Assembly (NCBI GenBank): GCA_964016885.1
Contig: OZ024741.1
Coordinates: 314,526,001 to 314,590,000 of the forward strand
From: Eledone cirrhosa
Taxonomy: Eukaryota
Direction: 5' to 3'
Length of the DNA stretch: 64,000 nucleotides
Position numbers and translations under genes: made by a program. Below the pieces are notes generated by a model. The model worked only from the letters and a program-made list of their open reading frames with translations, had not been told where the DNA came from and did no database searches. This document shows positions 301 to 64,000 of the stretch, in pieces (the first letter of the stretch is position 1; each line of letters opens with the position of its first letter).

Positions 301-431
301 TCCACCATAGTACAGATAATGGGACCCTGTCAAGGGGTTCTCCCTATCTAAAAAATCTAGATACAATGGCTTACACTTTGCTAAGTACCTCTCAAGCAGT
401 CGTCGCACTATAAAGGGAGAATCAATGGCAC
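301..431 (-). mobile_element. Decayed RTE LINE fragment (LINE-A, downstream part); all units
   Basis: SAIDSPFIVRRLLERYLAKCKPLYLDFLD..DRVP..VLWW corresponds to STTDAIFIVRQLQEKYLAK.KPLY.AFVDLEKAFDRVP..V.WW. Confidence 0.75.
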
Positions 432-1397
432 TCTTCTTCTTCTTCTTCTTCTTCTTCTTCTTCTTCTTCTTCTTCTTCTTCTTCTTCTTCTTCTTGCTAA
501 AATGGTAGTGGGTGGGGGAACCATTCCTTCCAGTGGGTTTGTCAGAAGCAACCGTCTCCAAATAATCCGGCTGGATCCCTAATCTAGACCAGATCTGCTC
601 ATGGATGTTATGCAATCATCTTGCACGGTCTCTCTCGCTGGGCTTCCTTCCGGGTGCGTTTACCCGTAAAATCTTTGTATCGATTTTTTCGCGAGACATT
701 TTAAACGCATGGATATAGTATCGTATCTGTAATCTCTCAATTCGGAGAAGAAACGACACTCCCTGGAAGGAAACCAGATCTCCAAGCTACGCACCCTACT
801 GAGTAACGTTACTGAAAATACCCTTTGGAGGAACCCTATTTCTGACGCTTGTATTCACGATCATATTTGTTTGATCATTACCCAAGATTCATGACCATAA
901 TGCGTGTGTACACGAATACCGTACTGAAGATAACCAGTTTGGATTTTTCACCTACATCCCTTCTTCCGCATTACAGCACCAGCTCCTGCAATTCTTGCGC
1001 ACTTAATTCAGCCACATGCGTTCCATCACTTGGTAACATTGCCTCAACATACTTGAATTTTTCCACCTGTTTAAGTGGAACTCCATTCATATATAGATTG
1101 CACGGCACAAGGATACCTTGAGACGACGAGTGTCTCAGTTTTCGCAGCATTGATTTTCATTCCAGCCATGCAGCACTCGACATCAAAACTACAGAGTGCA
1201 ATTCGGTGATTTTCTTCTTCGGAGTTACGGAATACCGCGTCGTCTGAAAATTCTAGCCGACTGATTTTACACTTGCCAGTCATGATACAACTTCTAGCCC
1301 GACTGCCCATGTCAATCATTTTCATATAAATAATGAACACGATAGATGAAAGACGCACTCCCAGATTGAATGGTTTCCATTTAGCACCATTTATCCA
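432..1397 (-). mobile_element. 5'-truncated, decayed RTE-type LINE (LINE-B) with (GAA)n 3' tail; present in all nine units
   Basis: Minus-strand IVFIIYM..ISRLEFSDDAVF..ECCMAGMKINAAKTETLVVSR resembles LFADD..GMKI..KTE RT motifs; ends in (CTT)21 on the + strand at 433-495. Confidence 0.8.
433..495 (+). repeat. (CTT)21 microsatellite (LINE-B tail)
   Basis: Read directly; homologous tracts in units 2-9 have about 8, 5, 4, 4, 7, 4, 7, 8 repeats. Confidence 0.97.
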
Positions 1398-1915
1398 GTG
1401 GTAGCATAAATTCAAACGTCATCTTATCTACTTTGAATATCTCTCGAATTAATCATGCTATAACATTTTCAACAAATTTCATAACATGGTCCATCAACTT
1501 GATACTTCCGTACTTATTTTCTCTAGTGCATCTTCATATTCCTTGTAGACGATGACGATAACTTTGCTGCTCCAGTCATTGGGTATGACACCTTTCTTGT
1601 ACTACTTGATTAACTATATGTCCGAGAAGCACATATCCTACAATTGATTTATCTATCTCATTGCTGTCAACTTCTTAGCTGATCCCTTAGTCAGATATAC
1701 ATGTGGTAAGCCCTTACTGTCCCATTTATTCTCTTCGTTCAGTAGTCTCTCATATTAAGTACTTCTTTTCGGTATAAGACAAGGTGGGTGTTCCACTGCC
1801 ATTTCGACCATTTCACGATTTTCTCTAGCACACTCTCTTGCAATACTTTATACATCCTTCAACTGATCTTCGCGACGAAGAACATGAGCAACTGTTTTTC
1901 TCCCTCTGCCCTTGC
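1398..1915 (-). mobile_element. Decayed RTE LINE fragment (LINE-A, upstream part), interrupted by LINE-B; all units
   Basis: Across frameshifts the minus strand reads KATGPSG..(in units 2-9)..GVIPNDWSSKVIVIVYK..DALE..IKLMDHVMKFVENVI..FEFM, the typical RTE segment preceding RT motif 'QFGF.PGRSTTDAIF'. Confidence 0.75.
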
Positions 1916-61007: not shown

Positions 61008-61142
61008 AATGCCCAGCAGGAAAGTATGGTGTGTCTTGTCGGTTGACATGCCATTGTTTCAACAACACTAAGTGTGAACAAGTAACTGGAAACTGTCCAA
61101 CTGGATGTGCTGCAGGTTTTATGGGTAGCAGCTGCGACGAAG
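61008..61142 (+). CDS. Internal coding exon, EGF-like module copy 9
   Basis: AG/GT bounded, 135 bp, phase 1-1; [44 protein letters not shown]. Confidence 0.9.
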
Positions 61143-64000
61143 GTATTTCTTAAAGATACTACGTATTTACAATATATATATATATATATATATATATATA
61201 TATAACATATATATATATATATATATAATTGTTTCTACTTTAGGCACAAGGCCAACAATTACCCAGTGCATTATTGGTACTTTATTTTATAGACCCCGTA
61301 AGGATGAAAGGCAAAGACAACCTCGGCGGGATATGAACTCAGATCGTAAAGAGACGTAACTATGCTGGAAAGCATGGCATCCGACCCTCTACCGATACTG
61401 CTAATATATATAATTGCTTCTTCTTTTGGCACAAGGCCAGCAATTATCCAGTGCATTACTGGTACTTTATTTTATCGACCCCGTAAGGATGAAAGGCAAA
61501 GTCAACCTCGGCGGGATTTGAACTCAGACCGTAAAGGGACGTAACTATGCTGGAAAGCATGGCGTCCGACCCTCTACCGATACTGCCAATCCATCGCCTT
61601 TCTGCCAATCCACTGCTAATATATATAATAACTACTAAATAGGGAGATGTTTAAATTATAGTAACAAGTTTTGAAAGGGGATCAATATTACAGATAAATT
61701 ATCCATTTATTGAACGTACAGTAGAACGGAGGGTAAATTACAGTATGAAATGTCGTAATTAGGCAAATTATTAGTTAATATCTTCTTCTATCATATGAAT
61801 CAAAATAAAACAAAAGGTTCTTCATCCTCAGTCTATACTGATTAATGTTCAGAGCGATCCTTAGCATTCTCGTGTAGCGCCCATCCACCATCTGAGTAGG
61901 TTTCTTGGTGAATGTCCCAGTTTCAGACCCATACAGCAGCACAGACTCCCCTACAGCAATGAAGAGACTTCCACACCGATCTGTGGCACGCCGCCCACGC
62001 TTTTCTCTTCCTCTCGATCACATCATCTTCTGTATTCCCAGTCTTTGCTCCCAGATACAGGACGTCCTCAACTAATTCTAGCGGCTTCCCGCCTATAATA
62101 GTAATCTTTTCTGGCTTCTTAATATTCTCTACCATATACTTCATCTTAATCTCATTTATTCAAAGCCCCATATTTATCGATACAGTCTCCACCTCCTGCA
62201 TCAAATCCTCTGCCTCCTTCACTGTGTTTGTCACCAGAACTATGTCATCGACAAATTCAGCATCCGATATCTTTTTCGCCTTAACTCTGCTCTTCTGACC
62301 CAATGTTACAGTAAAAAGCAAGTGAGCTAATCCGGAGGAGACAAAAGTGAGTAGTTATGCAGACTTCTTCTAGCCAGTATAGAAAAGGTTAATGTGCTCA
62401 ATGCGAACCATGCGATTAAATGTAATGAGAGATAGCTTAACAATTGTATAATAAGCAGAGTAAAAACCGTTTTTAAAATGCTGGAGGGAATAACAAAGAT
62501 TTATGAATACATGTATATATTTAATGGCTGACAAGCATGGCAGTGTAAAAACCTCATAACAGCCATTTTGTGTGGCTGCTATCACTTCCTTTCACTTCCA
62601 ACCTTTTACTAACAATATTCCACATTTAAAGAAGTTTTTTCACTTCGGTGATATAATTCAATTTATGAATTAATATGATATGAAGAATATTTTTGTAGGC
62701 TCTGATGGCTCTAGCTCCCACATTTTGAAACCGATTTCGTTCAAATTTTGTAGCAAAATAGAATTTATCATTGCACATCCTGTAATGGCGTAATACTTTG
62801 CATTTTTTGTTCAGGGACGACGTGGCAGCCGCTTATATTTTCAAAATATACAACTTTTAGACTCAAATTTCCACTTTTTCGGTGGGTACTGCAGCTAGTA
62901 TATATATAAATTTACAGTATCGTGAGAGAGGATAGAGAGATGAGGTAAAAGGAAACAATACAGAGGATTATTTGCCAAAAGCGGGTGCAAATGTGCTCGA
63001 TGCTTAGGCAAGCAAGGTTAAACATTAGAGGCGTTAATATTTAGTGTACGAAGTTAAGCAGAGCATTTATAATCGAAAATATTAATGAAACAGAAGCAAG
63101 CCGTTAAAACACATTTATAAATAACCTAAAAACATTTGTATTAACATCATTATTTTAATTTTTATTTGTATTTAAATCATTTATTATCTTATGTATTTGT
63201 ATTTCTCCACTTAAACATATTTTATGTGGATCATTTTATCCTATAATATAATACATCTCGAACTAGCTATTTTACATAGTAATGTATATTCGTCCGTATG
63301 TTTATTTTATTTTCTTTCTTCTTCATATCCCCATATTCATGATTAATTTCTATCCCCTTCTGCCTCCTCATCCCTCTTAATCTTCCTCTATTTCTTCTCA
63401 TCTTCCTTACTTATCCTTCCTCTTTGCCTATGCTATATCCCCACCCCTTTTATCTTTCTATATATATCTTTATTATTATTAATATTATATTTATTTTGAT
63501 GTGATAGTTTGATTTCATAACTTTGCCGGTTATACATTTAACTATATCTTCGTTCCTTCTTTCGTCATTTTCTTTCTTTCTCTCTCATTTCCATCTGTAC
63601 GCCTTCCTTTATTTATTTATCATTAATACTATTATTGATGTAGAAATTTGAATTTTCAAGTTTACCGTTACGCATATATTTTATATTAGTTAATAGTTTC
63701 TGATGAAATGATTGAATTTAGATGTATGGTAAATTAAGTTATACTGTCTCCAGTATTTAGCAATTTATAGACAATTCTATCATGGAAACAATTGTAAGAC
63801 TATAAATAAATATCCATGTTTGTACTGTCAACCATGTTATTCTTAACTTTTTTATACATATATATATATATATATATATATATATATATATATATATACA
63901 TATATGAAAAGTGTAATTTACTACACAAAACGAAGGTTATAGAGAAAATTGAGGTTCGTAATGGCACATGGAATATATGAGACAGAATACTTTTTTGTGA

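Follow-up and report, generated by a model that had tools for sequence, protein, structure and literature searches.

A tandem array of 13 EGF exons in a predicted receptor gene of the cephalopod Eledone cirrhosa

A stretch of 64,000 nucleotides (the window) on contig C2 (OZ024741.1) of the 3.0-Gb genome of Eledone cirrhosa carries a tandem array in which one exon encoding an epidermal growth factor (EGF) module has been multiplied together with its intron. The array comprises 13 head-to-tail units of 4.4–14.3 kb, each with one EGF exon and intron, and spans 301 to 98557; eight whole units and part of a ninth lie within the window. Window coordinates are positions in G000:C2:314526001-314590000; beyond its ends we use extended coordinates, for which the contig position is the value plus 314,526,000. 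An original prediction, made from the letters of the window alone, had described nine units of about 7 kb beginning at 301. Its start is the exact left breakpoint and its nine exons are present, but the ninth unit runs to 73286 and the array continues to a thirteenth. Unit lengths are uneven owing to unit-specific insertions and deletions.

All nine exons in the window are 135 nt long, with an AG acceptor, a GT donor, symmetric phase (1-1), eight cysteine codons, no stops and no indels, as had been predicted; copies differ from one another at 0–7 positions. A genome-wide search with the exon found 13 near-identical copies, four of which lie past the window end (at 75367, 83432, 90547 and 96185 in extended coordinates), and chance similarity is ruled out (E about 1e-60 to 1e-68 per copy). 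All 13 are intact in splice sites, frame and phase. Exon copy 2 matches the Pfam family EGF_laminin with E=0.008, under the curated cut-off. The introns were duplicated together with the exons, again as predicted, and are 90–99% identical in BLAST blocks. Of the 6,862 bases of the intron that follows exon 3, 4,076 have matches in a separate 350 kb of the genome, which includes a paralogue. A 185-bp repeat, presumably SINE-like (a short interspersed element), lies directly 3′ of the exon in two to three tandem copies that vary among units (22672-23045, 29856-30229, 37077-37635 and 61219-61590). Unit 9 has a private insertion of 6.3 kb, which, like that of unit 8, we take to be Penelope-like from its motifs; Pfam gave no match for the open frame of the unit-8 insertion or for two intron open reading frames (ORFs). 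Exon sequence from the region 6160-8240 is present in three contig sets (from one sample) and in one restriction-site-associated DNA (RAD) run. Contig depth there is 52, 91 and 69, with some divergent pieces at 7–19. It is no measure of how many copies exist: variants are lost from contigs, and coverage of the exon by the RAD run is slight. Among the 15 joints listed out of 80 for this region, none is exon-to-exon.

All 12 unit junctions lie at one identical breakpoint. Its two ends have just 2 bp in common, and the right end sits in the 5′ arm of a hairpin (−32.6 kcal/mol). Because all junctions fall at one point and the ends share only two bases, they point to a single, non-homologous founding event; a homologous, transposon-mediated start is rejected, as the first duplication has 2-bp microhomology only. 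Unit 4 is a mosaic: its 5′ part is unit-5-like at 23 of 25 sites and its 3′ part unit-3-like at 15 of 17, with five mixed sites at 24196-24306 in the switch zone. It is the youngest duplication, and its mosaic structure is what an unequal crossover should produce. In an intron block of 1,592 columns aligned across the 13 units, the four-gamete test fails for 226 of 1,035 site pairs and mean divergence is 2.2% (range 0.13–3.2%). Whole units differ by 0.55–1.84% (10 pairs tested), which agrees with the recent expansion that had been proposed. With its one junction, symmetric phase and mosaic unit, this is a tandem exon-duplication array that appears to have grown by unequal crossing-over, the mechanism named in the original prediction; the first duplication was not homologous.

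We propose that the founding duplication, at the microhomology junction beside the hairpin, would have been a replication or repair accident and not a homologous exchange. All later units reuse the founding junction, and the array would have grown by unequal crossing-over with conversion. Phase symmetry preserves the reading frame throughout, so that each unit would add 45 amino acids if spliced in, the in-frame step originally foreseen. Gain and loss of modules is habitual in the gene family, as its paralogues have 4–33 modules. The amplified module is probably the N-terminal, membrane-distal one; with 13 copies the ectodomain would gain 540 amino acids, and the module at its tip would be multiplied. 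Such an expansion would be tolerated.

The host gene was modelled from exon homology with neighbouring paralogues, a comparison that also yielded the predicted signal, membrane and cytoplasmic exons expected in the flanks; in this model, the host is a membrane receptor, as had been proposed. The predicted product, of about 1,007 amino acids, consists of a signal peptide, 20 EGF modules, a transmembrane helix and a short basic tail. Together, the signal, EGF and membrane exons make up 2,855 nt and lead into the tail exon without a frame shift; all three kinds are intact, including their splice sites (Table 1). Sequence blocks shared with paralogues connect the signal exon with the first EGF exon, and no conserved exon was seen between the two. 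The favoured tail has 55 residues, is rich in lysine and arginine and lacks tyrosine; it ends at a TAG codon shared in frame by 2 of 10 paralogues on contig C10. A protein search with a single exon gave no match. A representative search gave 3,984 EGF-repeat proteins, and the comparison of 134 additional ones added no non-EGF exon. A decayed non-LTR (long terminal repeat) retroelement directly upstream of the signal exon (extended -21300 to -19500) recurs in all three aligned family copies, having been duplicated along with the genes, and may be a source of promoter sequence.

Table 1. Features of the array, its predicted host gene and the gene family (window or extended coordinates unless a contig is named)
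Feature	Position	Strand	Remarks
Unit 1	301..5994	+	5,694 bp; starts at the left breakpoint (301); about 1.5 kb found in most units is missing
EGF exon copy 1	2333..2467	+	135 nt, phase 1-1, 8 Cys
Unit 2	5995..13395	+	7,401 bp; founding junction, 2-bp microhomology at 5995-5996, recurring at each unit start
EGF exon copy 2	8077..8211	+	
Unit 3	13396..20395	+	7,000 bp
Decayed reverse-transcriptase fragment, intronic	14117..14464	-	RVT_1 E=3e-5, under cut-off; in block common to units
EGF exon copy 3	15451..15585	+	
Unit 4	20396..27579	+	7,184 bp; mosaic, switch zone 23979-24368
EGF exon copy 4	22448..22582	+	
Unit 5	27580..34767	+	7,188 bp
EGF exon copy 5	29632..29766	+	
Unit 6	34768..42099	+	7,332 bp
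EGF exon copy 6	36829..36963	+	
Unit 7	42100..49079	+	6,980 bp
EGF exon copy 7	44152..44286	+	
Unit 8	49080..58980	+	9,901 bp
EGF exon copy 8	51049..51183	+	
Unit-8-private 3-kb insertion within (AT)n tract	55749..58794	+	755-aa stop-to-stop frame at 55647-57914, YRDD motif
Unit 9, in-window part	58981..64000	+	ends at 73286 (extended)
EGF exon copy 9	61008..61142	+	
Units 10-13	end of unit 9 to 98557 (extended)		98557 is the right breakpoint
Predicted signal-peptide exon	G000:C2:314506853-314506916 (extended -19147)		64 nt, phase-1 donor; 19 kb upstream of window
Seven older EGF exons	extended 101047-189134		
Predicted membrane exon	extended 197247-197349		
Predicted cytoplasmic exon	extended 210392-210590		
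Family cluster	C2 310.3-315.1 Mb		
Family cluster	C10 25.8-27.3 Mb		

Judged by exon matches, the host gene is one of at least 30 related genes in two clusters, into which all signal-exon matches (40 scored among 51 candidates) and membrane-exon matches (30 of 30) fall. The 13 genes examined have 4, 5, 5, 6, 6, 7, 8, 8, 10, 12, 13, 20 (the host gene) and 33 EGF exons, 137 in total. The exon amplified in the array is of the N-terminal type, which is single copy in the five C10 genes where it is intact. Among 124 older exons, the AG is kept in 120 and the usual GT in 112, 122 are free of stops and 109 encode at least eight cysteines. The first cytoplasmic exon of family genes is filled with a 12-bp repeat. 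Introns of neighbouring paralogues are about 85% alike, and ORF comparison there is too noisy.

Individual paralogues differ in further ways. In the next paralogue (C2:314974366-314989502, extended 448-464 kb), the cytoplasmic exon is itself tandemly repeated (unit of about 2 kb, eight full copies plus partials); six copies read from the usual acceptor have open frames of 35–215 amino acids, four of them rich in Gly, Lys, Asp and Ser. The first intron of that gene (extended 265000-324000) holds several related reverse-transcriptase elements of 3–4 kb, some in a 9.6-kb tandem repeat. A head-to-head paralogue (C2:314470004, minus strand) has one decayed module, an EGF exon (L035:3877-4004) without its acceptor AG and one cysteine, and is otherwise intact. 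All 9 genes at C10:25972929-26466804 have lost the GT donor of their last EGF exon, and the open frame runs on for two to three codons before a stop; inclusion of the exon would yield a secreted form, and otherwise it would have to be skipped. The paralogue with 33 EGF exons (C10:26842777-26907812) has many of them paired about 300 bp apart, an arrangement pointing to duplication units of two exons.

The likely source of the family is a receptor tyrosine phosphatase (RPTP). Compared with 249 proteins, 128 of 135 stop-free family exons have their best match (mean best identity 62%) in six Octopus lectin-EGF proteins, five of which carry phosphatase domains, and a second protein search gave nothing closer than 68%. 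A matching RPTP gene lies at C2 257.5-257.65 Mb, with a second copy near 261.8 Mb (261.74-261.86 Mb); its exons are about 35–82% identical to the Octopus entries. Between this locus and the host gene, the membrane exon with its flanks (65%, E=4e-8) and the intron that follows (65%, E=2e-28) are homologous, and the juxtamembrane exons agree in acceptor and reading frame. In the 1.46 Mb around the 13 family genes, no match at the protein level was found for the lectin, second juxtamembrane and PTP parts, and DNA matches were limited to three of 28–42 nt; the control RPTP locus returned lectin (E=7e-31), juxtamembrane-2 and PTP matches in the same comparison. Among at least 72 genome-wide matches to PF00102, none of those listed falls in either family cluster. 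The shared exons and intron, the missing lectin and PTP matches and the stops within the first cytoplasmic exon suggest that the family is likely to be a truncated offshoot of a lectin-EGF RPTP, minus lectin and phosphatase. The link to EGF-bearing receptor phosphatases drawn in the original prediction thus survives as probable ancestry but not as identity, as no PTP exon was found.

The parent RPTP (C2:257560622-257600464) has recently duplicated EGF exons of its own, five of them closely related and with shared intron flanks. Elsewhere, C2:231112938-231115940 holds EGF-like exons packed closely together, separated by short introns, that match the receptor query, and intronless phosphatase domains occur in open frames of 900–1,250 amino acids at C14:9149860-9164507 (three in tandem) and C22:17643413.

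With moderate confidence, we read the locus as a real 13-copy EGF exon-and-intron array in a predicted single-pass receptor gene (signal peptide, 20 EGF modules, helix and short basic tail), likely to have arisen from a lectin-EGF RPTP by loss of lectin and phosphatase, and likely to encode a non-signalling recognition or decoy receptor in host–parasite or self/non-self conflict. Most likely, the product would be a surface receptor without a signalling domain of its own, diversified outside its disulphide scaffold and used for recognition or as a decoy in immune conflict; the omega pattern, the clustering and the analogy with Biomphalaria resistance loci suggest such a role. In 80 older 135-nt exons in register, cysteines are kept at 99–100%, and pN is 0.005 at Cys and Gly codons versus 0.265 elsewhere. 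A codon model for 72 distinct older exons gives omega (dN/dS) of 1.66 (likelihood-ratio test statistic 17.3 against omega=1, p=3e-5), and a simple pairwise count gives a ratio of only 1.15. Membrane exons are in frame in 13 of 13 genes, with a core free of charged residues and pN (0.27) above pS (0.17).

A number of observations count against this interpretation. Omega can come out too high when exons convert or recombine with one another, the tree behind it was built on 132 nt, and the exon filter (hidden Markov model score, at least five cysteines in register) is biased towards cysteine retention. Some of the 124 older exons are broken: 4 lack the AG, 12 the usual GT, 15 have fewer than eight cysteines and 2 contain stops. 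The young exons of the array diverge by 2.18%, against 2.20% for the introns, and 10 of their 11 variable sites change a residue. That none of these 11 changes hits a cysteine or creates a stop is not significant (P about 0.1), nor is the scarcity of silent changes (P 0.13–0.18). The intactness of the young exons is by itself no evidence of function, and, with exons diverging as fast as introns, selection on the 13-fold expansion is unproven. The host gene model rests on exon homology and not on transcripts. Its tail belongs to a part that is not conserved, all 13 genes stopping within the first cytoplasmic exon after 13–180 amino acids (favoured readings), and an upstream acceptor would leave only 8 residues, with one tyrosine and no NPxY or YxxL/ITAM motif. 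For the signal exon, no match was detected in 200 kb around the RPTP gene, and the immune role is drawn from analogy only.

A more ambitious reading is possible but doubtful: a cephalopod system of 30–40 phosphatase-less, lectin-less offshoots of one EGF RPTP under diversifying selection, acting as decoys or paired recognition receptors, with ectodomain length tuned exon by exon and differing between individuals. The present locus would then be an expansion in progress.

Some of the same data could mean that the host gene is a pseudogene or a near-neutral spare, and that the array owes its growth solely to the instability of tandem repeats, which we consider unlikely. The matched divergence of young exons and introns, the excess of residue-changing sites and the broken exons of paralogues all fit that account, as do the heavy retroelement loads of the introns and a frame that, compared with the ancestral reading, is shifted inside the repeat of the tail. 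It leaves unexplained the intact signal, membrane and 20 EGF exons with their splice sites, the tail TAG shared in frame with C10 paralogues and the retention of cysteines across the family.

Alternatively, transcripts might differ in how many of the 13 copies they include, so that length would vary within one animal and not between alleles. Symmetric phase keeps any subset of exons in frame, the 13 long-intron units have near-identical splice sites, and related mollusc RPTP entries (P0011, P0012 and P0017) are listed as isoforms of differing length. However, the copies differ at 11 sites only, so choice among them gives little diversity. As the whole explanation, a spliced cassette is rather improbable; as an extra layer, it is compatible with the receptor reading that we prefer.

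It is very improbable that the array or a part of it is a false duplication made of stacked haplotypes or misjoined reads. The youngest duplicated segment (the 3′ half of unit 3 and the 5′ half of unit 4 versus its neighbour) does show about 7 differences in roughly 6 kb, with the switch-zone kilobase excluded, as would two alleles placed in tandem. Against this stand the divergence between units (0.55–1.84% over whole units in 10 pairs, up to 3.2% in the shared block), the private deletions, the 3-kb and 6.3-kb insertions found in one unit each, and the absence of any N in 464 kb. A diploid supplies two alleles and not 13 distinct units with private indels; an artefact of the whole array is therefore rejected, and only unit 4 is at real risk of being stacked alleles.

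MEGF10, Draper and CED-1 are defined by an N-terminal EMI domain and by cytoplasmic NPxY and YxxL/ITAM motifs; SCARF1 has no EMI domain. The entry IPR011489 is listed for MEGF10 in the excerpted text of PMC9334734. The proposal that the host is an engulfment receptor of this group, or else an EGF receptor phosphatase that is intact and has a lengthened ectodomain, has next to no probability: the cysteine spacing fits that EGF subtype, the 115 matches include MEGF10/11, PEAR1, draper and SCARF entries and a SCARF1 structure matches with E=4e-7, but the best matches are lectin-EGF-PTP proteins, the conserved blocks join the signal exon directly to the first EGF exon, the favoured tail has no tyrosine, and the 1.46 Mb around the 13 genes gave no lectin, juxtamembrane-2 or PTP match at the protein level. 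A MEGF10 orthologue is rejected because no EMI exon was found (249 proteins, MEGF10 and draper included, gave only EGF, transposon, short stop-containing or low-complexity matches in 664 kb) and the tail has no tyrosine motif, which also leaves the membership in this group originally suggested unsupported. An intact phosphatase is rejected because no PTP exon was found around the 13 family genes. The family resembles MEGF10/Draper/CED-1, PEAR1 and SCARF1 in EGF subtype (tandem, eight-cysteine, laminin/PEAR1-like) and in type I topology; it differs in forming lineage-specific multigene clusters with rapid change and in having no tail motif of the NPxY/YxxL type.

Tandem amplification of an exon is known from kringle IV-2 of LPA. 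In teleost Piccolo, as described in the excerpted text of PMC3484663, a zinc-finger exon was amplified tandemly by unequal crossover to 8–16 copies, and domain-repeat expansion in general is treated in the excerpts of PMC1553488. Exon amplification by unequal crossover is thus already known, and here too one exon is multiplied tandemly inside a gene, one module per step. In contrast to Piccolo and LPA, the amplified module is the N-terminal one and not a middle one, and the units are young (0.1–3%), so that the founding junction, later insertions and the crossover hybrid can each be seen at the base level. The host family carries more weight than the mechanism: EGF receptors that are numerous, clustered and quickly evolving and that probably derive from a receptor phosphatase. 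No description of such a cephalopod EGF-receptor family was found in the literature searched, which lay mostly outside subscription papers. Variation in ectodomain length among cephalopod receptors becomes testable by long reads.

The closest known relatives are the molluscan lectin(GBD/F5-8C)-MEGF RPTPs (Octopus P0001, P0002, P0014, P0030 and P0062, and the Biomphalaria SudRes1 RPTPs of PMC12297450), which have 135-nt, phase 1-1 EGF exons in common with the present family, a homologous membrane exon, following intron and juxtamembrane exon, and likewise clustered paralogues. The present family lacks their lectin (GBD/F5-8C), N-terminal and PTP domains and numbers at least 30 genes, whereas two close RPTP loci are seen on C2. 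The nearest parallel in architecture is with the scavenger class F-like receptors of Biomphalaria. Subgroup 1A, as presented in the excerpts of PMC13712769, has a signal peptide, an EGF ectodomain, one helix and a small cytosolic part, as does the predicted host gene; the receptors are clustered and copy-number variable, and the class is marked by the InterPro signature IPR042635/IPR052108 and by binding of pathogen or damage ligands. They belong to a different class of mollusc, are likened here by architecture and probably arose independently; the excerpts describe no 13-fold array of young exons, and the present family has no known link to a parasite. At the resistance loci of Biomphalaria, receptors of signal peptide, EGF modules and helix with small tails sit beside forms with lectin and phosphatase (PMC13712769), and in B. 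sudanica the loss of EGF domains differs between haplotypes (PMC12297450). As far as the excerpts of these two papers go, the spectrum of architectures in the snail resistance loci is the same as here, and this parallel with receptor clusters tied to schistosome resistance makes the family a candidate for variable immune recognition in cephalopods.

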